DNA of 64,000 bases. Origin: Escherichia phage PP01. Positions within the stretch are counted from its first letter, which is position 1. Every line of letters starts with the position of its first letter. A program made the position numbers and the translations under genes. The notes under the pieces were generated by a model. It was not told the DNA's origin. It was given only the letters and a program-made list of their open reading frames with translations, and did not search any database. Shown piece by piece: positions 6,859 through 61,293 of this stretch. The DNA lies in sequence record NC_054930.1. One strand, written 5' to 3'.

Positions 6859-7146
6859 TTACCATTTATGATAATACATATTTACGATGCATTCAAGACC
6901 TAAAGGATTCTTGAAAATATCATATTCAAGAGGACCTTTTTCCGTTTCAATAAAGAAATCAAAGTTAACTGTATTAAATTTACGGTCTTCCTTCACTAAT
7001 TTAACTTGAGAAGATGAACGGTCAATGTAAACCTTTTCAACTTCAAAACATGTTAAAACGCCATAATCATCAATCAAGGCTTTAGCCGCGTCTTGATCAT
7101 ATTTATATCCATTTTCAATGGACGATACTTTAGCATAAAGAATCAT
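6859..7146 (-). CDS. Hypothetical protein
   Basis: 95 aa ORF; its ATG sits 3 nt after the stop of the upstream frameshifted ORF. Confidence 0.5.
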   Translation of the reverse strand: MILYAKVSSIENGYKYDQDAAKALIDDYGVLTCFEVEKVYIDRSSSQVKLVKEDRKFNTVNFDFFIETEKGPLEYDIFKNPLGLECIVNMYYHKW

Positions 7147-7148
7147 TA

Positions 7149-7558
7149 TCAGCCTTCATCAACAATAGTATGAGTGTGGGCATTTACGATTTGCCACCAG
7201 TCGAAACGATTGGAACCATAATCTGGTTTATTTTCATTTTCTTTAATGATATCACGCAGTTTATCTTCTGTTTCAGCATACGCAATTAAATCATCATATC
7301 CGCCACAAGGATAATAATTATCACCTGCGAATAAAAGAAAATTTACCTTAGATGGATTTACGTAATAATGGTCTTTAGGATATTTAGTTCCTCTCCAATC
7401 AGTTACTTCAACATAACGGTAAGAAAATCCATTTTTACTTTCAATCCAACTCCACGCTTCAAAAGGAGTATTAAAAACTTTATCAGGTATTAAATTACCT
7501 TCAAAATGAGAAGGATTTGCATAATCCCAGCATAAACATAGTATTCGTTAATACTCAT
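7149..7558 (-). pseudogene. Frameshifted ORF (about 135 codons), absent from the ATG-based track
   Basis: ATG at 7556-7558 opens a frame that stops after 22 codons; a different frame continues stop-free for about 130 codons (WDYANPSHFEG...GDNYYPCGGYDDLIAY...WWQIVNAHTHTIVDEG) to a stop at 7149-7151 but has no ATG/GTG/TTG start. Confidence 0.4.
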
Positions 7559-7744
7559 CTATTCACCTTTAGAAATTTTATCCATAACGATAGCGATTAA
7601 ACCAATTAAAAATGCTACTACAAGCGAAAACACATTTTCTGCTGTAGTTAATAATCCGCATATAAATCCAACAAACATTGAAAAACTAAAAGCGGAAGCA
7701 GAAATTGCAATAGCAACATTTCGAATTAATTCACAACGTTTCAT
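7559..7744 (-). CDS. Small hydrophobic membrane protein (61 aa)
   Basis: Start taken at the internal ATG (7742-7744) preceded by GAGGAG; the track ORF begins at a TTG; sequence MKRCELIRNVAIAISASAFSFSMFVGFICGLL is strongly hydrophobic. Confidence 0.45.
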   Translation of the reverse strand: MKRCELIRNVAIAISASAFSFSMFVGFICGLLTTAENVFSLVVAFLIGLIAIVMDKISKGE

Positions 7745-7772: not shown

Positions 7773-7802
7773 ATAGTATCACTACTAAAACCCCGTGTAA
7801 AC
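7773..7802 (-). promoter_or_regulatory. T4 early-type promoter copy (GTTTAC -35, gTGaTACTAT -10) overlapping an inverted repeat
   Basis: Minus strand aaataatttcacaaagttGTTTACacgggg...gtgaTACTAT; 49-nt block shared with the copy at 8104-8133. Confidence 0.4.
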
Positions 7803-7814
7803 AACTTTGTGAAA

Positions 7815-8072
7815 TTATTTTAAATCTTCTAATCGTTTCTTCATCTTAGAACCATTTTTAGCGATTTCTCCTGCGTCAGAGCATAATGCTAAAAGTGCTT
7901 TAACTTTAGTTTGGTCTCCTTTAAAAGACGAAGGATCGACTGCAGCAGCAAGTTCTTTAATACGAGAGAAAAGACGCTCAGCTTCAGCTAAAGCCATTCC
8001 AAGCTTTACTTCCATACCATGAGAAGATTCAGTGATAATAGTTTCTGTAGCAAACTCTTTATAAGTTTTCAT
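7815..8072 (-). CDS. Internal protein I-like (85 aa) with CTS
   Basis: MKTYKEFATE N-terminus (CTS variant); adjacent to 57B as ipI is in T4; the body differs from what I recall of T4 IPI. Confidence 0.65.
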   Translation of the reverse strand: MKTYKEFATETIITESSHGMEVKLGMALAEAERLFSRIKELAAAVDPSSFKGDQTKVKALLALCSDAGEIAKNGSKMKKRLEDLK

Positions 8073-8103
8073 TTTATTTTTCCTAATTAATTTTGATGAG
8101 GTA

Positions 8104-8145: not shown

Positions 8146-8842
<697 letters not shown>

Positions 8843-32144: not shown

Positions 32145-34124
32145 ATGACTTTATTATCTCCGGGCATTGAGCTCAAAGAAACTACGGTTCAAAGCACCGT
32201 GGTTAATAACTCTACTGGTACAGCAGCTTTGGCCGGTAAATTCCAGTGGGGTCCTGCTTTTCAGATTAAACAGGTTACAAACGAAGTAGATTTAGTTAAT
32301 ACTTTTGGTCAACCAACCGCTGAAACTGCTGACTATTTTATGTCTGCGATGAATTTCTTACAGTACGGAAATGACTTACGAGTAGTTCGTGCTGTTGATA
32401 GAGATACCGCTAAAAACTCATCTCCGATTGCTGGTAATATTGAATACACAATTTCTACCCCAGGTAGTAACTACGCGGTTGGAGATAAAATCACGGTCAA
32501 ATATGTTTCAGATGATATTGAAACTGAAGGTAAAATTACTGAAGTAGACGCAGATGGAAAAATTAAGAAAATTAATATTCCTACTGCAAAAATTATCGCT
32601 AAAGCGAAAGAAGTAGGTGAATATCCAACACTAGGTTCTAACTGGACTGCGGAAATTTCTTCATCTTCCTCTGGTTTAGCTGCAGTAATAACTCTTGGAA
32701 AAATTATTACTGATTCTGGTATTTTATTAGCTGAAATTGAAAATGCTGAAGCTGCTATGACAGCGGTTGACTTTCAAGCAAATCTCGAAAAATACGGAAT
32801 TCCAGGAGTAGTAGCTCTTTATCCAGGCGAATTAGGCGATAAAATTGAAATTGAAATCGTATCTAAAGCTGACTATGCAAAAGGAGCTTCTGCATTACTC
32901 CCAATTTATCCAGGTGGTGGTACTCGTGCATCTACTGCCAAAGCAGTGTTTGGATATGGACCACAAACTGATTCACAGTATGCTATTATAGTTCGTCGTA
33001 ATGATGCTATTGTTCAAAGCGTTGTTCTTTCAACTAAGCGCGGTGAAAAAGATATTTACGATAGTAACATCTATATCGATGACTTTTTCGCAAAAGGCGG
33101 CTCAGAATATATTTTTGCAACTGCACAAAACTGGCCAGAAGGCTTCTCTGGAATTTTAACTCTGTCTGGTGGATTATCATCAAATGCTGAAGTAACAGCA
33201 GGAGATTTGATGGAAGCTTGGGACTTCTTTGCTGACCGTGAATCTGTTGACGTTCAGCTGTTTATTGCGGGTTCTTGTGCCGGTGAATCTTTAGAAACAG
33301 CATCTACTGTTCAAAAACACGTCGTTTCAATTGGGGATGCTCGCCAAGATTGCTTAGTATTGTGCTCTCCTCCGCGTGAAACTGTAGTTGGAATTCCTGT
33401 AACTCGTGCTGTTGATAACTTAGTCAATTGGAGAACTGCAGCAGGTTCATACACTGATAATAACTTTAATATCAGTTCAACCTACGCAGCAATTGATGGT
33501 AACTACAAGTATCAGTATGACAAATATAATGATGTGAATCGTTGGGTTCCATTAGCAGCTGATATTGCTGGTTTATGTGCAAGAACTGATAACGTTTCTC
33601 AGACTTGGATGTCACCAGCTGGTTATAATCGTGGCCAAATTTTGAACGTTATTAAACTGGCTATTGAAACTCGCCAGGCTCAGCGCGACCGTTTATACCA
33701 AGAAGCTATCAACCCAGTAACTGGTACAGGTGGTGATGGTTACGTATTGTATGGTGATAAAACAGCTACTTCTGTTCCTTCTCCATTTGATCGTATTAAC
33801 GTTCGTCGTCTGTTTAATATGTTGAAAACGAACATCGGACGTAGTTCAAAATATCGTTTGTTCGAATTAAACAACGCGTTTACTCGTTCATCATTCCGCA
33901 CAGAAACTGCCCAGTACTTACAGGGAATTAAAGCTCTCGGTGGAATTTATGAATATCGTGTAGTTTGCGATACAACAAATAACACTCCGTCAGTAATTGA
34001 TAGAAATGAGTTTGTTGCAACATTCTACATCCAACCGGCTCGTAGTATAAATTATATCCAACTTAATTTCGTCGCAACTGCTACTGGTGCAGATTTTGAT
34101 GAGTTAACTGGTCTTGCAGGTTAA
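32145..34124 (+). CDS. 18: gp18 contractile tail sheath protein
   Basis: 659 aa as in T4. Confidence 0.96.
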   Translation: MTLLSPGIELKETTVQSTVVNNSTGTAALAGKFQWGPAFQIKQVTNEVDLVNTFGQPTAETADYFMSAMNFLQYGNDLRVVRAVDRDTAKNSSPIAGNIEYTISTPGSNYAVGDKITVKYVSDDIETEGKITEVDADGKIKKINIPTAKIIAKAKEVGEYPTLGSNWTAEISSSSSGLAAVITLGKIITDSGILLAEIENAEAAMTAVDFQANLEKYGIPGVVALYPGELGDKIEIEIVSKADYAKGASALLPIYPGGGTRASTAKAVFGYGPQTDSQYAIIVRRNDAIVQSVVLSTKRGEKDIYDSNIYIDDFFAKGGSEYIFATAQNWPEGFSGILTLSGGLSSNAEVTAGDLMEAWDFFADRESVDVQLFIAGSCAGESLETASTVQKHVVSIGDARQDCLVLCSPPRETVVGIPVTRAVDNLVNWRTAAGSYTDNNFNISSTYAAIDGNYKYQYDKYNDVNRWVPLAADIAGLCARTDNVSQTWMSPAGYNRGQILNVIKLAIETRQAQRDRLYQEAINPVTGTGGDGYVLYGDKTATSVPSPFDRINVRRLFNMLKTNIGRSSKYRLFELNNAFTRSSFRTETAQYLQGIKALGGIYEYRVVCDTTNNTPSVIDRNEFVATFYIQPARSINYIQLNFVATATGADFDELTGLAG

Positions 34125-34162: not shown

Positions 34163-34768
34163 GTGATTATTTCTAAGTTTGTTACAATAAAACCAAGAAA
34201 TCATTCAAAAATGTGGTCGACAATTCTGGGATATAAAGTATCATATCATGATACAGTATCTGTTCCAATAGAATTAATGCCAAAGAATAGTAATAAAATA
34301 GTTGACGCTAAATGTGATTTGTGTGGTATTAAATTTAGTAGAAGCATTCAGCTTTTAAATAGAACACCAACGCATGCATGTAGAAAATGTAGCATTAAAC
34401 AAGTTGCTATTAAAAATTCGGAAGTTCAATCTGGAATAAGTAGACCATGGCAAAGAGGTGATAAACATCCTCGATGGACTGGTAAAAGAAAAGAGTTTGC
34501 ATTATATGCTAGTAGAGTTCATTCTATAACTAAGTCAGCTAAAATAAGAAAAATCTGGTCAAAATGGCCAAATGCTGATAAAATAGGAGTGTGTGGCGTA
34601 GAAGGTGCTTACCAACTCGATCATAAAGTATCTATCAAATATGGATTTGATAATTTAATTCCGCCGGAAATTATAGCAAGCGTAAAAAATTTAGAAATAA
34701 TCACTTGGGAATCTAACCGAGAAAAATCAAAAAGAAATAGCGTAGATCTTTGGGATTTACTAGAATGA
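34163..34768 (+). CDS. Freestanding HNH homing endonuclease
   Basis: 201 aa; GTG start with SD GAGGA 5 nt upstream; Cys-pairs (CDLCG, CRKC) and C-terminal HNH-type motif YQLDHKVSIKYGFDN...NLEIITWESNREKS; T4 has no gene between 18 and 19. Confidence 0.7.
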   Translation: MIISKFVTIKPRNHSKMWSTILGYKVSYHDTVSVPIELMPKNSNKIVDAKCDLCGIKFSRSIQLLNRTPTHACRKCSIKQVAIKNSEVQSGISRPWQRGDKHPRWTGKRKEFALYASRVHSITKSAKIRKIWSKWPNADKIGVCGVEGAYQLDHKVSIKYGFDNLIPPEIIASVKNLEIITWESNREKSKRNSVDLWDLLE

Positions 34769-40800: not shown

Positions 40801-41501
40801 CTATTTTATACGATAGCAATCAGGCATATCATCCGCATTTATCCAATTGCGAATAGTTTTAGGACTAACTTTAAAATGCTCCGCTGCGTAATCAGGATTA
40901 TCAAATTTAACGCCCTTTATACATATTGGAATAAATTTTTTAATACCACCAAGTTTTTCAGAAATAGCTTTACGGTGTGAAATCGATATAGGTTTATTTT
41001 TTCGTGGATGAACATGTGTTTTATAATATTCATTGCGCCCTTTAACTCGCTTCGCAATAGTTTCATCAGATTGCTTAACGCCTGTTTTTGCCTTTGATAT
41101 TTTTCGTTTAGCTTCCACAGTCATTCCTTCTTTTGTTCGTATTGATAACATATTACGATATGAAGGATCTTGCAAATGAACTATAACTGGATTTCCTCTG
41201 CCACCAATAGCAGCATTATAGGTATCAGTTCTCATAACGAATTCCTCATTGACTAGTAAAGCTTCCATTTTATACATCTCCTCAGATGAGGAGAAAGAAT
41301 AAAGAATTTCTTTTTAAAGTTATGAATACCATATTTTTTGATGGATTTTTTGATGTTTACGCCAGAACCCATATAACCATCGTTTTCGTCAAGAGTAGCA
41401 TGAGCTCCGATGTAAATTTTTCCATTGATGATATTAGTAATTTGATATATTAAATATTTCATTTTAAACATCGCTCCGTTTGTATATGAATATAATATCA
41501 T
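40801..41501 (-). pseudogene. segD: segD GIY-YIG homing endonuclease gene split by a frameshift
   Basis: 82-aa ORF (41253..41501) carries the GIY-YIG module [21 protein letters not shown]...GYMGSG and ends [10 protein letters not shown]; the 158-aa ORF (40801..41277) continues in another frame; the frame switch sits in the run ctttaaaaagaaattc, where SegB reads NFSKEIL. Confidence 0.6.
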
Positions 41502-44460: not shown

Positions 44461-45879
44461 TTATGGATAGGTATAGATGATACCAGTTTCTAAAGCAGTT
44501 TTATGAATGATGTATCCATTGCGCGATTCTTGAACATCAACTTCTGGATAGTCTTTCATCATCTTCTGAAGAGTGTAACGATGCAAGTAGTATTTACTAT
44601 CTGGATCTTCAGTTTTCCAATCTTTACCTTCTTCAGTCATTTTTTGGATTTCATCCATAACCCACCAACCGCACCAGATATAAGCTGAGCTACGATGTGG
44701 AAGAGGATGAACATAAGGTAATTCACCTTCTGGTTCCGGAGCAACTTTATCAGTCACTTGAACTTGACCTGTGGCTTTAACTGTTTTACTATCATAGTCA
44801 GTTGCTGTAACGACAGCAGTAACTTCAATAGTTTGACTTCCAATAGATGATGTATCAACGGTGTATACATTAGTTGACCCTTCTACAGGAGAAGAATCTT
44901 TCTTCCATGAATACGTAATTTGTGCTTCTTCCGGAGCATCCGTAACGTTAGCAGTAAATGTAGCCGAAGCATCTTGCTGAACATTAATAGAAGGAGGAGT
45001 CAATGTAACCTGTGGATTCATTGTCTTCTTATTAACTGTCAATGATACTTCATTGGAAGTAACTTCCTTTTCATTATAATTTTCTGCAGTTACTTGGGCT
45101 ACGCATTTAATTCTTTTTACTCCACTTGTAGTTGGAGTATAGTTAAATGTAGAGTTAGTTTCTCCACCAACTTGTGAATCATCTACATACCACTGATACG
45201 TGGCAGACGCTCCATCGGGTTGAGAAGCTAAGGCAGCAGTAAATTGAACCGGAGTTCCAATTACTCCAGCAGCAGGACTAGCAGGAGTTACTGCCAAGGT
45301 AGTTGTCTGCGTCTTTTTATTAACCGTCAATGATACTTCATTAGAAGTAACGCTCAATGCATCATAATCTGTCGCAGTTACTTGAGCTACACACTTGATT
45401 TTTTTAACTCCGCTTGTGGAAGGAGTGTAATTGAATGTAGCGTCAGTTGCTTCGTCTACAGGAGAACCGTCAACATACCATTGATACGTAGCAGATGCGC
45501 CCGATGGCTGTGAAGCTAAGGCAGCAGTAAATTCAACGGCTGTTCCGATTACTCCTTCTGGAGGACTATTAGGAGTTACAGCTAAGGTAGTTGTCTGTGT
45601 CTTATTTTGAACTGTGATAGTTGTACTAATTTCAGCTGTTTCAGCTTCAGCTTCTGGAACTGTATTTGTTGCAACCACTTTAATAGTCTTTTGACCAGCA
45701 GGTCCTTTTAATACATAATTAAAGGTTGCTTCAGCTCCATCCTGTGGAACATTATCTACGCTCCAAGCATAGGTAATAGTTCCACCTCCAGTTTCACCAC
45801 TGGGTGTAGCAGTAAACTGCTTGGTTTCATCAATAACCCCTGTTGGTGTTTTAGGAGTTATATCAACTGTAAAAGCCAT
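44461..45879 (-). CDS. hoc: Hoc outer capsid decoration protein, extended (472 aa)
   Basis: Ig-like domain repeats and the C-terminal capsid-binding region ...WCGWWVMDEIQKMTEEGKDWK...; about 96 aa longer than T4 Hoc (376 aa) owing to a tandem domain duplication. Confidence 0.9.
   Translation of the reverse strand: MAFTVDITPKTPTGVIDETKQFTATPSGETGGGTITYAWSVDNVPQDGAEATFNYVLKGPAGQKTIKVVATNTVPEAEAETAEISTTITVQNKTQTTTLAVTPNSPPEGVIGTAVEFTAALASQPSGASATYQWYVDGSPVDEATDATFNYTPSTSGVKKIKCVAQVTATDYDALSVTSNEVSLTVNKKTQTTTLAVTPASPAAGVIGTPVQFTAALASQPDGASATYQWYVDDSQVGGETNSTFNYTPTTSGVKRIKCVAQVTAENYNEKEVTSNEVSLTVNKKTMNPQVTLTPPSINVQQDASATFTANVTDAPEEAQITYSWKKDSSPVEGSTNVYTVDTSSIGSQTIEVTAVVTATDYDSKTVKATGQVQVTDKVAPEPEGELPYVHPLPHRSSAYIWCGWWVMDEIQKMTEEGKDWKTEDPDSKYYLHRYTLQKMMKDYPEVDVQESRNGYIIHKTALETGIIYTYP
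45028..45603 (-). repeat. Tandem direct repeat, 2 x 288 bp, inside hoc (duplicated Ig-like domain)
   Basis: Two consecutive 96-codon units with highly similar protein sequence (NKKTQTTTLAVTP.SP..GVIGT.V.FTAALASQP.GASATYQWYVD...FNYTP.TSGVK.IKCVAQVTA...VTSNEVSLTV). Confidence 0.8.
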
Positions 45880-46619: not shown

Positions 46620-48131
46620 ATGACTGACATTAAAGTACATTTTTACGATTTTAGTCACGTGAGAATTGATTGTGAAGAAAGTACATTTCATGAACTCCGT
46701 GATTTCTTTAGCTTTGAAGCTGATGGGTATCGTTTTAATCCGAAATACAAATATGGTCACTGGGATGGACGAATCCGTCTTTTAGATTATAATCGCCTTC
46801 TTCCATTCGGTTTAGTTGGGCAAATTAAAAAGTTCTGTGATAACTTTGGCTATAAAGCCTGGATTGACCCGCAAATTAATGAAAAAGAAGAATTATCAAG
46901 AAAAGATTTTGATGAATGGATTTCTAAATTAGAAATCTATTCAGGAAATAAAAGAATTGAACCACACTGGTATCAAAAAGATGCAGTGTTCGAAGGATTA
47001 GTTAATCGTCGTAGAATTCTTAATCTTCCAACATCCGCAGGTAAATCTTTAATTCAAGCTTTGCTTGCACGTTATTATTTGGAAAATTATGAAGGTAAAA
47101 TTCTTATCATTGTTCCAACAACTGCTTTAACAACTCAGATGGCTGATGACTTTGTTGACTATCGTTTATTCAGTCATGCAATGATAAAGAAAATCGGTGG
47201 TGGAGCATCAAAAGATGATAAATATAAAAATGATGCACCAGTCGTTGTGGGTACATGGCAAACTGTAGTAAAACAACCAAAAGAATGGTTTTCCCAATTT
47301 GGTATGATGATGAATGATGAATGCCATCTTGCTACAGGAAAAAGTATTTCATCTATCATATCGGGTTTAAATAACTGCATGTTCAAATTCGGTTTGTCTG
47401 GTTCATTACGTGATGGAAAAGCCAATATCATGCAGTATGTTGGAATGTTTGGTGAAATATTTAAGCCAGTAACGACTTCTAAATTAATGGAAGATGGGCA
47501 AGTAACTGAGCTAAAAATTAATAGTATTTTTCTTCGCTATCCTGATGAGTTCACTACTAAATTAAAGGGAAAAACTTACCAAGAAGAAATAAAAATTATT
47601 ACTGGACTCAGTAAAAGAAATAAATGGATTGCTAAATTAGCTATTAAACTTGCACAAAAAGATGAAAACGCTTTTGTCATGTTTAAGCATGTATCACATG
47701 GTAAAGCTATTTTCGATTTAATTAAAAATGAATACGATAAAGTTTATTACGTATCAGGGGAAGTTGATACCGAAACACGCAACGTAATGAAAACCTTAGC
47801 TGAAAACGGTAAAGGAATAATTATAGTAGCTAGTTATGGTGTATTTTCTACTGGTATTTCAGTTAAAAATCTGCATCACGTTATTTTAGCGCACGGTGTT
47901 AAATCTAAAATTATTGTATTGCAAACAATAGGTCGCGTATTACGTAAGCATGGTTCTAAAACAATCGCAACGGTCTGGGACCTCATAGATGATTGTGGTG
48001 TTAAGCCAAAATCTGCTAATACGAAAAAGAAATATGTTCATTTGAACTATCTTTTAAAACACGGCATTGATCGTATTCAGCGCTACGCAGATGAAAAATT
48101 TAATTACGTAATGAAAACAGTTAATTTATAA
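46620..48131 (+). CDS. uvsW: UvsW RNA-DNA / DNA helicase
   Basis: 503 aa; SF2 helicase motifs (PTSAGKS Walker A, DECH box); matches T4 UvsW. Confidence 0.96.
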   Translation: MTDIKVHFYDFSHVRIDCEESTFHELRDFFSFEADGYRFNPKYKYGHWDGRIRLLDYNRLLPFGLVGQIKKFCDNFGYKAWIDPQINEKEELSRKDFDEWISKLEIYSGNKRIEPHWYQKDAVFEGLVNRRRILNLPTSAGKSLIQALLARYYLENYEGKILIIVPTTALTTQMADDFVDYRLFSHAMIKKIGGGASKDDKYKNDAPVVVGTWQTVVKQPKEWFSQFGMMMNDECHLATGKSISSIISGLNNCMFKFGLSGSLRDGKANIMQYVGMFGEIFKPVTTSKLMEDGQVTELKINSIFLRYPDEFTTKLKGKTYQEEIKIITGLSKRNKWIAKLAIKLAQKDENAFVMFKHVSHGKAIFDLIKNEYDKVYYVSGEVDTETRNVMKTLAENGKGIIIVASYGVFSTGISVKNLHHVILAHGVKSKIIVLQTIGRVLRKHGSKTIATVWDLIDDCGVKPKSANTKKKYVHLNYLLKHGIDRIQRYADEKFNYVMKTVNL

Positions 48132-48144
48132 GGGCTTCGGCCCT
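48131..48144 (+). other. GC stem-loop (agggcTTCGgccct) between uvsW and uvsW.1
   Basis: 5-bp G/C stem with UUCG loop. Confidence 0.35.
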
Positions 48145-48387
48145 TTGGAGAAAAAGATGTTACTAGAATTTAAACAATTTCTTTATGAAGCTTCTATTGA
48201 TGAATTTATGGGTAAAATTGCCTCTTGTCAAACATTAGAAGGTTTAGAAGAACTTGAAGCTTATTATAAGAAAAGAGTCAAAGAAACTGAATTAAAAGAT
48301 ACTGATGACATCTCTGTGAGAGATGCTTTGGCAGGAAAAAGAGCTGAATTAGAAGATTCAGATGATGAAGTAGAAGAAAGCTTTTAA
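48145..48387 (+). CDS. uvsW.1: UvsW.1
   Basis: 80 aa acidic protein immediately after uvsW as in T4. Confidence 0.8.
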   Translation: MEKKMLLEFKQFLYEASIDEFMGKIASCQTLEGLEELEAYYKKRVKETELKDTDDISVRDALAGKRAELEDSDDEVEESF

Positions 48388-50465: not shown

Positions 50466-50487
50466 ATTTTAGCTCCTTTATTTATCA

Positions 50488-57135: not shown

Positions 57136-59193
57136 CTACATTTTGAACTTTTTAGACATTCCGTTGATGTTAACCAAAGAAGCCAAGATTTGAGAAACTT
57201 CATTTTCCTCTTCTTTTGATTCTTCTACAAGGAATTGATTAAATCCAGCCATTGGACGAACTTCACCAGTTTCCATTAGATGGTCGCCATCATATACCGA
57301 TTCTTTTAATTGTTCAGAAGGAGGAACGATTGTGCCTTCGATTAAATACTTATTATAAGCAGTTTCTTTCATCATGTACGTACTCACTTTATTAATCTTC
57401 AGCAAAATTCCACGCGGTAAAATAACTTCAGCTTCTGACGGAAATCCTGATAAATGCCCTGGAACGATAACTTTGATTCGCTCAGCTCCTTTAATTACCA
57501 TACCCACGCTAGTTTCAGCATCTTCATTCGCATAAGCAGAATGACTGCCCATATGCATTAAATCTTCAGCATCAACGGAACCTTCTCCTTCACCAGAAAA
57601 TACTGCACCGGAATCATCTAGAGCCATATAGTTTTTACCATACTCACCGAAGATATTTGGTTTAAGCGATGTGGATACGAAGTTCTTGAAATAGAACATT
57701 TTATTTTCAATATTATGACGTAAAGTTTTAAAGGTAACTTCTTGTCCACGGTAAAGTGTAGTTCCTGGAGGAAGAACTGATCCTTTGGCAAAGGCAGAAT
57801 CCATTGTCTCGATGTGTTTAATAGCTCGTTCCATGTATTCTTCACGTGTAGAATCCGGTTTACCTAAAAGGAACGAGTTCATTTCAACATATGAATCTGC
57901 ACAATAATCTTCAATTACATCAGACTCAGCCTGAGTTAATCCTTTTGGAGTTACTTCAGTACTTGCATATTCATACGCTTGAGAAGCAGACTCATTAATC
58001 AATTTATAAACGCCATTCATGACAAATTGAATAATAGCTACCTTTTCATCTGGCGTGGCTTTAGAACCTTTAACTAAATCATTGACGATTTTCTTAATAA
58101 CATCAAAGCTATTAGAAATATTAATGTCAGCAAGATCGCTTAAAATTTTATCAGTTTTATAATCAAAAAATTCTTTATTCTTTAAATATTCTTGAGAACC
58201 TTGATATGTTATATCGCTCTGTAACTTGATAGATGGATCACGTAAACGTGCATGAGCCAATGCAATATGATTTCGGAAGCTTTCTAGTTCATAATCACTA
58301 GATTTAAAACGAGAAGCACTTCTCATACCACCGATAGCTCCTTTGCTGAAGTTTGAACCAACCTGAATAACGCCGGAGTTCATTGGTCCTTCTGCTTTAT
58401 ATACCGGAACTTTAGATTCAAACTCTTGGTATTTCTTAGCAGCGAAGCTATCACCCTGAAGTGAAGCATCGACGGTAGAGTATTGAGCTTGTGCTGCTAA
58501 TCGACGACTAATTTTAGTTTTCTGAATAACAGCTTGATCCGTGCGCTTATCATTTTCTAAAGCAATAGAAGCGGCAACAGCGACAGCTTTAGGAACAGCA
58601 TTACCTGTTTTAACATCTACATAAACATCACCAACCTTTGATTCAACTTTTGTGAATAACTCAGTTGAAATAGGAGGTACACCTGGAATGTCTTCTAAAT
58701 TGGCATTTTTACGGTAAACCATAATATATGCATATTTCTTATCATAGTCCCAGATTTCCTTTAAAAGAACATATCGACCTGCTCCTTTAGTACGTACTAA
58801 ACGGTCGGCAATAACTTGCATTTGACGAGCTGCGCCATTTGTTTTACTCTTTAGTACGCGGAATAAGCATGCGTCAATTTTGTACTGTTTCATTGTCTGA
58901 AGAGCAGTATCAAAAACCGCATTAATGACACCAATTGGATTTCCACCCAAGTTTTTAAGTTTAACTAATGATAGTTTCTCATTAACACCTATCATTACGA
59001 TATGCATCATTTTATCGCCTGGCTTAACGTTTTTATTCGTATCACCGCCAGAGGTGTATGTACAAAATCTAAATCCAGGAAGCACGCTTTCTTCGCCTGC
59101 TTGAATAGCAAAAATTTGAGGTATTTTATGCTTAGGATTTAAGTTAACAACCGGCGCCGAAGCGCCGTCAAATAATTCTGTAATAAGTTCCAT
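57136..59193 (-). CDS. Alt-like ADP-ribosyltransferase, second tandem paralogue (685 aa)
   Basis: N-terminus MELITELFDGASAPVVNLNPKHKIPQIFAIQ parallels the upstream paralogue; C-terminal ART signature: Arg (LYRGQ), STS motif (FVSTSL), Glu-rich catalytic region (EAEVILPRG). Confidence 0.8.
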   Translation of the reverse strand: MELITELFDGASAPVVNLNPKHKIPQIFAIQAGEESVLPGFRFCTYTSGGDTNKNVKPGDKMMHIVMIGVNEKLSLVKLKNLGGNPIGVINAVFDTALQTMKQYKIDACLFRVLKSKTNGAARQMQVIADRLVRTKGAGRYVLLKEIWDYDKKYAYIMVYRKNANLEDIPGVPPISTELFTKVESKVGDVYVDVKTGNAVPKAVAVAASIALENDKRTDQAVIQKTKISRRLAAQAQYSTVDASLQGDSFAAKKYQEFESKVPVYKAEGPMNSGVIQVGSNFSKGAIGGMRSASRFKSSDYELESFRNHIALAHARLRDPSIKLQSDITYQGSQEYLKNKEFFDYKTDKILSDLADINISNSFDVIKKIVNDLVKGSKATPDEKVAIIQFVMNGVYKLINESASQAYEYASTEVTPKGLTQAESDVIEDYCADSYVEMNSFLLGKPDSTREEYMERAIKHIETMDSAFAKGSVLPPGTTLYRGQEVTFKTLRHNIENKMFYFKNFVSTSLKPNIFGEYGKNYMALDDSGAVFSGEGEGSVDAEDLMHMGSHSAYANEDAETSVGMVIKGAERIKVIVPGHLSGFPSEAEVILPRGILLKINKVSTYMMKETAYNKYLIEGTIVPPSEQLKESVYDGDHLMETGEVRPMAGFNQFLVEESKEEENEVSQILASLVNINGMSKKFKM

Positions 59194-59196
59194 GAT

Positions 59197-61293
59197 TTAT
59201 CCTTGAACGAACTTGTAAGGCATGTTTGTAATATCTATGCAAGACGCAATAATTCCAAGAGATGATTCTACTTTCTGTTTAATATTTGATGAAACAAATG
59301 ATGCAAAGTCAACTCTGTCTTCTATTTCAATATCATCTGTCATTGCAACTACTTCGCCGGTTTCCATTAGACGGTCACCGTCATAAATTACTGATTCGGT
59401 GAGTTCTTCCGTAGTCATAACTTCAGCTTGAATGAGTTTTGTATTATTAGATGTTGTTCCGTCATTATTAGAAGCATCAGTTATTTTATTAACTTTGACC
59501 ATCAATCCGCGTGGTAGAATAACTTCAGCTTCTGTTGCTATTCCGAGACTTCCTGGATATACAACATTAACTTTATGAGCTCCATCAATTGCCCATCCTA
59601 TTTGAACTTTAACGTATTCAGGATTTTCTTTATACGCTCTTATTTCGTTTGGATTGATAGTTATTCCTTCTTCATTTTTATCAACTGTTAATTCATTACG
59701 AGCTTCTGGTTCTAAAAGACCTATACCAGCATGTGTAATTCCAAAACGTCCAAAAATGATAGGAGTTAAAGAAGTAGATACAAAATTTCTGAAATAGAAC
59801 ACTTTATTTTTAACTAGTGCTTCGTATATAGGAGCAGTCATGCTTTGAGCACGATAAACTGTAATGCCTTCTGGTATACGGTCACCATTTTCAAAAGCTG
59901 AATCTAAATTATTTATCGCAGATTCAATTTCTTTTTCACTCATTACATCATATCGTTCTGGATTGTAGCGGCCTAAAAGAAGATTATTGATGTCAGTATA
60001 TCCTGATCCACAATACTCTCTAATGCCGCGCTTTTGCGATGGAGTATATTTAGAACCATCACGTGCAATGGTAATATCAATCATTGGACCTGCACCAATT
60101 CCAGAAAAGCTATAAATCATTCGTTTGAGGAATTTAGTTTTTGCTGCGTTCCAGGAATTTTTAGTTATTTCTTCCCAGACTTCATCTGGCTGCCCTTTAC
60201 GAGTTTTATTATGTTTATCAAGCCAATTATCTTTATATTCTTCAAAGAATTGATTAACAGCTGCTGCGTATTTCTCTAAACATTTTATTGAAGTAGTTGG
60301 TTCATTTTTAATCGCATTAAGAATTACATCTTTAATTTTTTCAGAAACTTCATTAACCTCACTTTTTGAAAAGAATTTATAATCATAGTGAAGTTCATCT
60401 GCAGTTCCTTCAGCAATAATTTTTGCTGCCTTAGTTTTAGAAGCTAATGAATTAATTCCAAGTTTCATTTCTTCTGCTTCAGGAATTAAAGGAGCTGTAG
60501 CAGGTTTATTGAAATTAGCTGCGGTAGATTCATACTTCTGGAATAATTCACTTTCAAATCTAGAAGATTCTAATGATTGACTTTGCGCAATTGCTCTACG
60601 GGAAATTTTAACTTTAACGATTACAGCTTGGTCAGAACGTTTATCATTTTCTTGTGCAATAGAAGCAGCAATTGCCTCATTTTTAGTTACTTGAGCTCCA
60701 GTATCTTTATTAATATAAACATCGCCGACTTTCGATTCAACTTTAGTAAAGAGCTCGGTACTAATTTCCGGAACTCCTGGAATGTCTTCTAGTGATACAT
60801 TTTTGCGATGTATAAGAATATATGCATACTTTTTATCATAATCCCAGAGTTCCTTAAGAAGGACGTATCTGCCACCTGAACGACTACGGATAAGTCTATC
60901 AGCAATAACTTGAATTTGTCGAGCTTGACCAGCAGTTTTAGACTTAAGAATACGAAGCATGCAGGCATCAATTTTATACTGACGCATTGTTTGCATTGCA
61001 ATAGTAAAAACTGAATTGATATAATTAATTGGGCTTGGACCGAGACCTTTTAATTTAGCAATTGAACCTTTAGCAGTTAATGTAAAAGGAACAATATGCA
61101 TCATTTTATCGCCCATTTTTAAATCGCGATTAGTATCACCTCCAGATGTATAGGTACATAAACGAAAGCCTGGTTGTTCAATTGCGTCATCAACGTGAAC
61201 TGAAAAAATTTGTGGTATTTTCTTCTTTGGATTTAAGTTTGTAATCGGAAGAGTAGTATCTTCGTCAAATAATTCTGTAATAAGTTCCATCAT
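59197..61293 (-). CDS. alt: Alt ADP-ribosyltransferase (698 aa), packaged head protein
   Basis: N-terminus MMELITELFDEDTTLPITNL... as I recall for T4 Alt; ART signature VYRAQ, FVSTSL, EAEVILPRG; own late promoter. Confidence 0.8.
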   Translation of the reverse strand: MMELITELFDEDTTLPITNLNPKKKIPQIFSVHVDDAIEQPGFRLCTYTSGGDTNRDLKMGDKMMHIVPFTLTAKGSIAKLKGLGPSPINYINSVFTIAMQTMRQYKIDACMLRILKSKTAGQARQIQVIADRLIRSRSGGRYVLLKELWDYDKKYAYILIHRKNVSLEDIPGVPEISTELFTKVESKVGDVYINKDTGAQVTKNEAIAASIAQENDKRSDQAVIVKVKISRRAIAQSQSLESSRFESELFQKYESTAANFNKPATAPLIPEAEEMKLGINSLASKTKAAKIIAEGTADELHYDYKFFSKSEVNEVSEKIKDVILNAIKNEPTTSIKCLEKYAAAVNQFFEEYKDNWLDKHNKTRKGQPDEVWEEITKNSWNAAKTKFLKRMIYSFSGIGAGPMIDITIARDGSKYTPSQKRGIREYCGSGYTDINNLLLGRYNPERYDVMSEKEIESAINNLDSAFENGDRIPEGITVYRAQSMTAPIYEALVKNKVFYFRNFVSTSLTPIIFGRFGITHAGIGLLEPEARNELTVDKNEEGITINPNEIRAYKENPEYVKVQIGWAIDGAHKVNVVYPGSLGIATEAEVILPRGLMVKVNKITDASNNDGTTSNNTKLIQAEVMTTEELTESVIYDGDRLMETGEVVAMTDDIEIEDRVDFASFVSSNIKQKVESSLGIIASCIDITNMPYKFVQG

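Follow-up and report, generated by a model that had tools for sequence, protein, structure and literature searches.

A single missing G splits trna.3 into two reading frames in the genome record of the T4-like phage PP01

We analysed 64,000 nucleotides of the genome of Escherichia phage PP01 (NC_054930.1; hereafter the window) and find that the small gene trna.3 is divided there between two overlapping reading frames, only the first of which has a start codon. Using ortholog alignment, allele queries, a comparison of homopolymer runs and a search for recoding signals, we trace the split to one base missing from a run of G. The locus is an ordinary single-base frameshift, by mutation or by consensus error, in a known T4 gene, and it is neither a recoding site nor a new element. 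We consider it probable that the deletion in the G4 run is real and that this phage alone carries a recently arisen null allele of an accessory gene taken to be dispensable.

Results

Genomic context of the locus

By its sequence, the window belongs to a Tequatrovirus (T4-like) genome and is colinear with that of T4 between genes e and 30.2; the closest phage record to it reaches only 97.4% identity over 24 kb. The local gene order is trna.4, trna.3, trna.2 and tRNAs (Table 1), with an eight-gene tRNA cluster, containing segB, downstream of the trna.3 locus. The X03016 annotation of T4 places the early promoter PE1 directly ahead of trna.4, from where three ORFs lead into the tRNA genes, and it shows further middle and late promoters downstream of trna.3. 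The promoter-like site of the window sits at the position of PE1, upstream of trna.4-trna.3-trna.2, and trna.3 is the middle gene of this early unit, which reads into the tRNA cluster. The last gene of the unit, trna.2, carries a Shine-Dalgarno-like motif, GAAGG, of its own.

An internal-protein gene and 57B are also found near trna.3. The 57B gene (window 8146-8601, minus strand) encodes a protein 99.3% identical to T4 gp57B, and Pfam assigns its orthologs in relatives an Acb1 domain (PF23474, anti-CBASS nuclease family). In place of T4 ipI, the window encodes at 7815-8072 (minus strand) an internal head protein of another type (85 aa; phrog_3499), which corresponds to Ip5 in T6 and RB51; the identical 85-aa protein is present in at least 23 other contigs.

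Further departures from T4 lie elsewhere in the window. An inserted ORF of 201 aa with a GTG start (34163-34768, plus strand) separates the tail sheath gene 18 from the tail tube gene 19, which in T4 are only 116 bp apart; T6 has T6ORF160 at this place. The C-terminal part of the 201-aa ORF resembles, by eye, an HNH-type endonuclease. Two full-length tandem paralogs of alt (RNA polymerase ADP-ribosylase; 57145-59193 and 59200-61290, minus strand) are 42% and 70% identical to T4 Alt, whereas T4 has one alt gene and the remnants alt.-1 and alt.-2. The hoc gene (44464-45879, minus strand) is longer than that of T4, and T4 Hoc yields two overlapping tblastn alignments to it, which suggests an extra Ig-like repeat. 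Indels of 1 or 2 nt relative to T4 that are compensated within about 10 nt occur at 32586/32596 (gene 18), 50748/50754 (gene 51) and 56441/56451 (gene 54); each patch changes two or three residues and leaves the gene unbroken.

Two overlapping frames between trna.4 and trna.2

An ATG that directly follows the TAG stop of trna.4 opens a frame of 22 codons with the product MSINEYYVYAGIMQILLILKVI*. When aligned to the Trna.3 proteins of T4, T6 and teqskov, residues 1-11 of this product are the authentic N-terminus, MSINEYYVYAG, followed by 11 out-of-frame codons. The second frame overlaps the first over 55 nt (7547-7493) and lacks ATG, GTG and TTG throughout its 132 codons. From 7526 onward it comprises 125 codons, which correspond to Trna.3 residues 12-136 (DYANPSHFEG...WWQIVNAHTHTIVDEG). 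This arrangement agrees with the preliminary description of the locus, which had reported the 22-codon frame, an overlapping frame open for about 130 codons and the lack of the three start codons in the latter. Two of its measures need adjustment: the ORF that it put at about 135 codons is an open stretch of 132, of which the 125 from 7526 are homologous to Trna.3, and the spacer between the TGA of the long frame and the ATG of trna.2 (7146-7144) is 2 nt, not 3 nt.

The long frame is more than a chance opening, because a stop-free run of 132 codons has a probability of about 8e-5 per position at 35.9% GC, because among the 80 stretches of the window that run for 100 codons or more without a stop it alone (1/80) is startless, and because it is 98.4% identical to T4 Trna.3 over residues 12-136 (tblastn). 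As written, it is presumably untranslated.

Table 1. Coordinates of the features discussed, as positions in the window
Feature	Position	Strand	Remarks
trna.2, 95 aa, intact	6859..7146	(-)	94.7% identity to T4; phrog_2023
Stop-free -1 frame of trna.3, 132 codons + TGA	7149..7547	(-)	open 7547-7152, TGA 7151-7149
Residual 22-codon ORF of trna.3	7490..7558	(-)	authentic ATG 7558-7556, TAA stop 7492-7490
G3 run, site of the one-base deletion (CCC on + strand)	7526..7528	(-)	relatives all G4
trna.4, 61 aa, predicted membrane protein	7559..7744	(-)	100% identical to T4 Trna.4; phrog_1692
Promoter-like site (TTTACA, 17-nt spacer, TACTAT, upstream TG)	7773..7801	(-)	consensus match only
segD, A5 vs A6 in T4/T6	T-run 41311-41315 on + strand; gene 40801-41501	(-)	private one-base deletion

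Identity of the split gene and its family

Sequence similarity identifies the split locus as the ortholog of T4 trna.3 (136 aa). Restoring one G yields a continuous, conventional gene of 136 codons, which is the one-base repair that the preliminary description had proposed to look for by alignment with orthologs. The restored 136-aa protein is 98% identical to T4 Trna.3 and matches phrog_1411 with E = 2.6e-51 over positions 2-127 of 129. The gene is ORF3 of the original T4 tRNA-region sequence X03016, with the UniProt-style name Y07C_BPT4, and PF26894 (Phage_T4_Y07C) is carried by 20/20 database homologs of Trna.3. By family similarity and by its place ahead of the tRNA cluster, flanked by trna.4 and trna.2, the locus thus belongs to trna.3, but with the frame split at 7526-7528 no continuous ORF with a start spans it. 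Similar to the locus in the window, T4 trna.3 lies between trna.4 and trna.2 downstream of PE1, has a start context in which TAG/TAA directly precedes the ATG, and stops 2 nt before trna.2. In contrast to T4, the window is one G short at codons 11-12, which leaves the 22-codon ORF and the startless 132-codon frame. As written, trna.3 of the window therefore reads as a disrupted family member, that is, a pseudogene or apparent pseudogene.

Trna.3 and phrog_1411 are annotated as a conserved protein of unknown function, and our literature searches found no functional study of trna.3 or Y07C. The family is small and, in a search of 5.8 billion proteins, confined to T4-like phages, with 20 clusters. 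Full-length members comprise 122-136 aa. Their N-terminal half is variable across the family, and the conserved core consists of the C-terminal ~63 residues (NFLLFAGDNYYPxGGYxDL...FDWWQIVNAxTHTIVDEG). This core also stands alone in natural proteins of 60-100 aa that have their own ATG. A profile search with the core returned 334 representative clusters at E <= 0.001, only 6 of them at <= 1e-10. In one member of the core family (P0071), the core is fused to an N-terminal helix-turn-helix domain, and a protein of 2,031 aa (P0044) contains 10 partial matches to positions 62-92. Trna.3 is under clear purifying selection and is intact in all of the more than 120 relatives.

One G is missing from a conserved G4 run

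The relatives read GC(C/T) GGG GAT (Ala10-Gly11-Asp12) where the window reads GCT GGG ATT. In alignments with T4, T6, teqskov and the three independent assemblies L010, L011 and L009, a single gap falls in the G run and no other frame disturbance is seen; the long frame contains no base private to the window and no further decay. The preliminary description had suspected a 1-nt indel near 7500-7540, and the G run that is one base short of all relatives lies within this interval. With G4 as the ancestral state in all relatives, the change to G3 is the loss of one homopolymer unit, as in replication slippage. It resembles the Streisinger frameshifts known from the classical T4 rII hotspots in that exactly one unit has been lost in a T4-type genome, and the change from A6 to A5 in segD of the window is alike in this respect. 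It differs from them in that the run is short and in that the event is deduced from relatives and looks here the same as a base-calling error.

Only the window shows the split layout, which none of the relatives shares. A query of 76 bases spanning the site detected the G3 allele in 0 of about 125 phage records: none of the 125 reached 99% identity, and the matches listed each span at least 77 bases. As a control, the same type of query gives 100% matches for shared alleles elsewhere in the window. With the 22-residue peptide, tblastn gave, among the matches listed, only two-piece alignments spanning 67 nt, that is, two frames. A continuous trna.3 ORF with a usable start was present in 21/21 fetched relatives, among them metagenome contigs and Logan assemblies located via exact matches to neighbouring proteins. 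The orthologs start conventionally and share the downstream frame, the outcome which the preliminary description had said would point to a simple indel or sequencing error and away from recoding. Scans of metagenome and genome contigs contained no G3 word, the denominator being small as the G4 control matched only 3 metagenome contigs, and IMG/VR, in which neither the G3 nor the G4 word is present, is a collection without this sequence. One relative, L010, had appeared to lack trna.3; this is a gap in its gene table, and its DNA is identical to that of L011, with an intact G4 gene.

Mutation or consensus error?

Is the G absent from the phage, or only from its published sequence? In the case of an artefact of sequencing or assembly, the true phage sequence would be GGGG with an intact Trna.3 of 136 aa, and the A6 run of segD would have been under-called likewise. 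Neither exact look-ups of the two segD fragments nor searches of E. coli genome and plasmid collections turned up a second assembly of the phage. We compared about 80 annotated T4 proteins to the window by tblastn and found frame breaks in three genes, trna.3, segD and uvsW. The break in uvsW was rejected as a defect: it is the natural two-gene junction of uvsW and uvsW.1, annotated likewise in e11/2, and consists in the window (48128-48165) of a TAA, the GC-rich hairpin GGGCTTCGGCCC, GGAG and an ATG. Essential genes, by our own classification from classical T4 genetics, are frame-intact in 37/37 cases (57A, 1-8, 9-20, 67, 68, 21-30), over 38.5 kb or about 60% of the window.

We further compared the length of all runs of at least 3 nt, anchored by their flanks, with the references T4, e11/2 and T6. 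Among 2,537 comparable runs, 4 differ from every reference. The run lengths at 8077-8081 and 50467-50470, both intergenic, are ordinary polymorphisms, as they recur with 100% identity in 15 and 30 other phages, respectively. The other two (2/2,537) are private, namely the G4 to G3 change in trna.3 and the A6 to A5 change in segD, and both are one-base deletions that cause frameshifts. The A5 allele, seen in 0/51 phage records, splits the segD homing-endonuclease gene into ORFs of 82 and 158 aa; segC and segE are missing from the window altogether.

How do these data bear on an artefact? An assembly with so few private runs, and with none in the ~38.5 kb of essential coding sequence, is otherwise very clean, and a run of 4 bases is short for a homopolymer error at the consensus level. 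However, G3 and A5 are each unique among all public relatives, and both changes are single-base deletions inside mononucleotide runs. One-base under-calls in homopolymers are a classic signature of consensus error on 454, Ion Torrent and Nanopore platforms, and a G/C run in a T4-like phage would presumably consist of glucosyl-hydroxymethylcytosine DNA, which is hard for some platforms. In addition, the broken trna.3 shows no private substitution or other decay, and a natural knockout is unexpected in a gene that is otherwise universally intact and under purifying selection.

Frame artefacts from sequencing errors have also been seen before in T4 records. In the same T4 region, the length of segB was corrected on re-sequencing (606 vs 666 bp in X03016; PMC2330249), and the T4 record AF158101.6 fuses uvsW and uvsW.1 into a CDS of 587 aa, with small indels at which the reference is the odd one. 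Similar to the case of trna.3, a single-base difference alters the apparent gene structure in these records. There, however, the reference is wrong and other phages are right, whereas here it is the window that departs from every other record.

The location of the two private deletions speaks, weakly, for real mutations that have been filtered by selection. Both hit genes that we take to be dispensable from general knowledge of T4, trna.3 as an ORF of the tRNA region and segD as an optional seg gene, as selection on real mutations predicts. Yet the chance that two random errors would both miss the essential genes is about 0.19, and those who deposit genomes may be more apt to correct errors in well-known genes, so that a chance of 19% is weak evidence. 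We therefore rejected the contrast between essential and dispensable genes as a decider, since at P ~0.19 it is too weak alone to separate mutation from artefact. Weighing these points, we regard an artefact as a possibility of some weight that falls short of being probable, and we infer that the phage DNA itself, beyond its assembly, probably lacks the G.

Alternative starts and recoding signals

Could some functional Trna.3 be made from a real G3 allele, either by -1 slippage of tRNA-Gly at GCU GGG A or by reinitiation at UAAUA? Such leaky recoding would tune down, and not abolish, a strictly conserved accessory gene, but we hold it to be very unlikely. By termination-reinitiation or a non-canonical start, the long frame could be entered at, for instance, the AUA at 7490-7488, to give an N-terminally truncated Trna.3 that retains the C-terminal module. 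This AUA overlaps the UAA of the 22-codon ORF (UAAUA, 7492-7488) and has a GAAGG 7 nt upstream, and as the core is known from stand-alone proteins of 60-100 aa, the truncated product could in principle fold. However, E. coli ribosomes initiate very poorly at AUA codons. Moreover, the bases of the AUA/GAAGG motif are identical in relatives with an intact trna.3; because of this, the motif is a coincidence of the coding sequence and was not selected for the purpose. Taken by itself, we give this route even less credence.

The preliminary description had offered a programmed frameshift as the other reading of the locus. Its layout indeed recalls genes with programmed -1 frameshifting (lambda G/GT, dnaX), in which the frames overlap in the -1 register and the upstream short ORF carries the start, but the window has no heptamer, structure or conserved layout of this kind, and the relatives have a single ORF. 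No X_XXY_YYZ heptamer occurs at the 22 zero-frame positions of the 55-nt overlap, which contain two half-matches at 7507 and 7504. RNA of the 96 nt that follow the G run is no more stably folded than its shuffled versions (pseudoknot-free folding; MFE -16.9 kcal/mol, mean of the shuffles -15.8, z = -0.35). The two-frame architecture is absent from the 21 fetched relatives and from the ~125 phage records, whereas programmed sites are conserved. Transcriptional slippage needs runs of about 8 or more A/T, and the G3 run is far too short. Programmed frameshifting is not supported because heptamer, structure and conservation all fail; so even though the long frame lies in the right (-1) register, a second reading of one G behind Gly11 would yield the conserved AGDYANP exactly, and a slip of tRNA-Gly from GGG to UGG would keep 2/3 base pairs, restoration of full-length Trna.3 by ribosomal frameshifting or transcriptional slippage at GCU GGG A is the least credible of all the explanations.

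Discussion

A real deletion in the G4 run is, in our judgement, probably what gave rise to the split trna.3. Replication slippage of the Streisinger type would have deleted one G at codons 11-12. Ribosomes would then start at the authentic trna.3 ATG, shift out of frame after Gly11 and stop after 22 codons, and the remaining 125 codons would stay untranslated because the long frame has no start codon. Full-length Trna.3 would consequently not be made.

What are the consequences for the neighbouring genes? As written, about 340 nt are left untranslated between the stop of the short ORF and trna.2. Polarity effects on downstream genes are nevertheless likely to be limited, because trna.2 has its own GAAGG motif and the T4 tRNA genes have additional downstream promoters. 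As for the function of the lost protein, trna.3 adjoins known counter-defence genes, namely the internal-protein locus and 57B, and this neighbourhood makes a counter-defence role a reasonable guess.

In conclusion, the appropriate annotation of the locus is trna.3 with a frameshift, flagged as a pseudogene or a possible sequencing error; recoding site and novel startless ORF are both unsuitable labels. Should the deletion prove real, PP01 would be a natural trna.3 knockout, while the small protein is intact in each of the other sequenced Tequatrovirus genomes examined, and plaque formation on the isolation host would not require Trna.3. The phage would then provide a ready-made mutant for probing the role of Trna.3, for example by comparing its host range with that of a G4-restored derivative.
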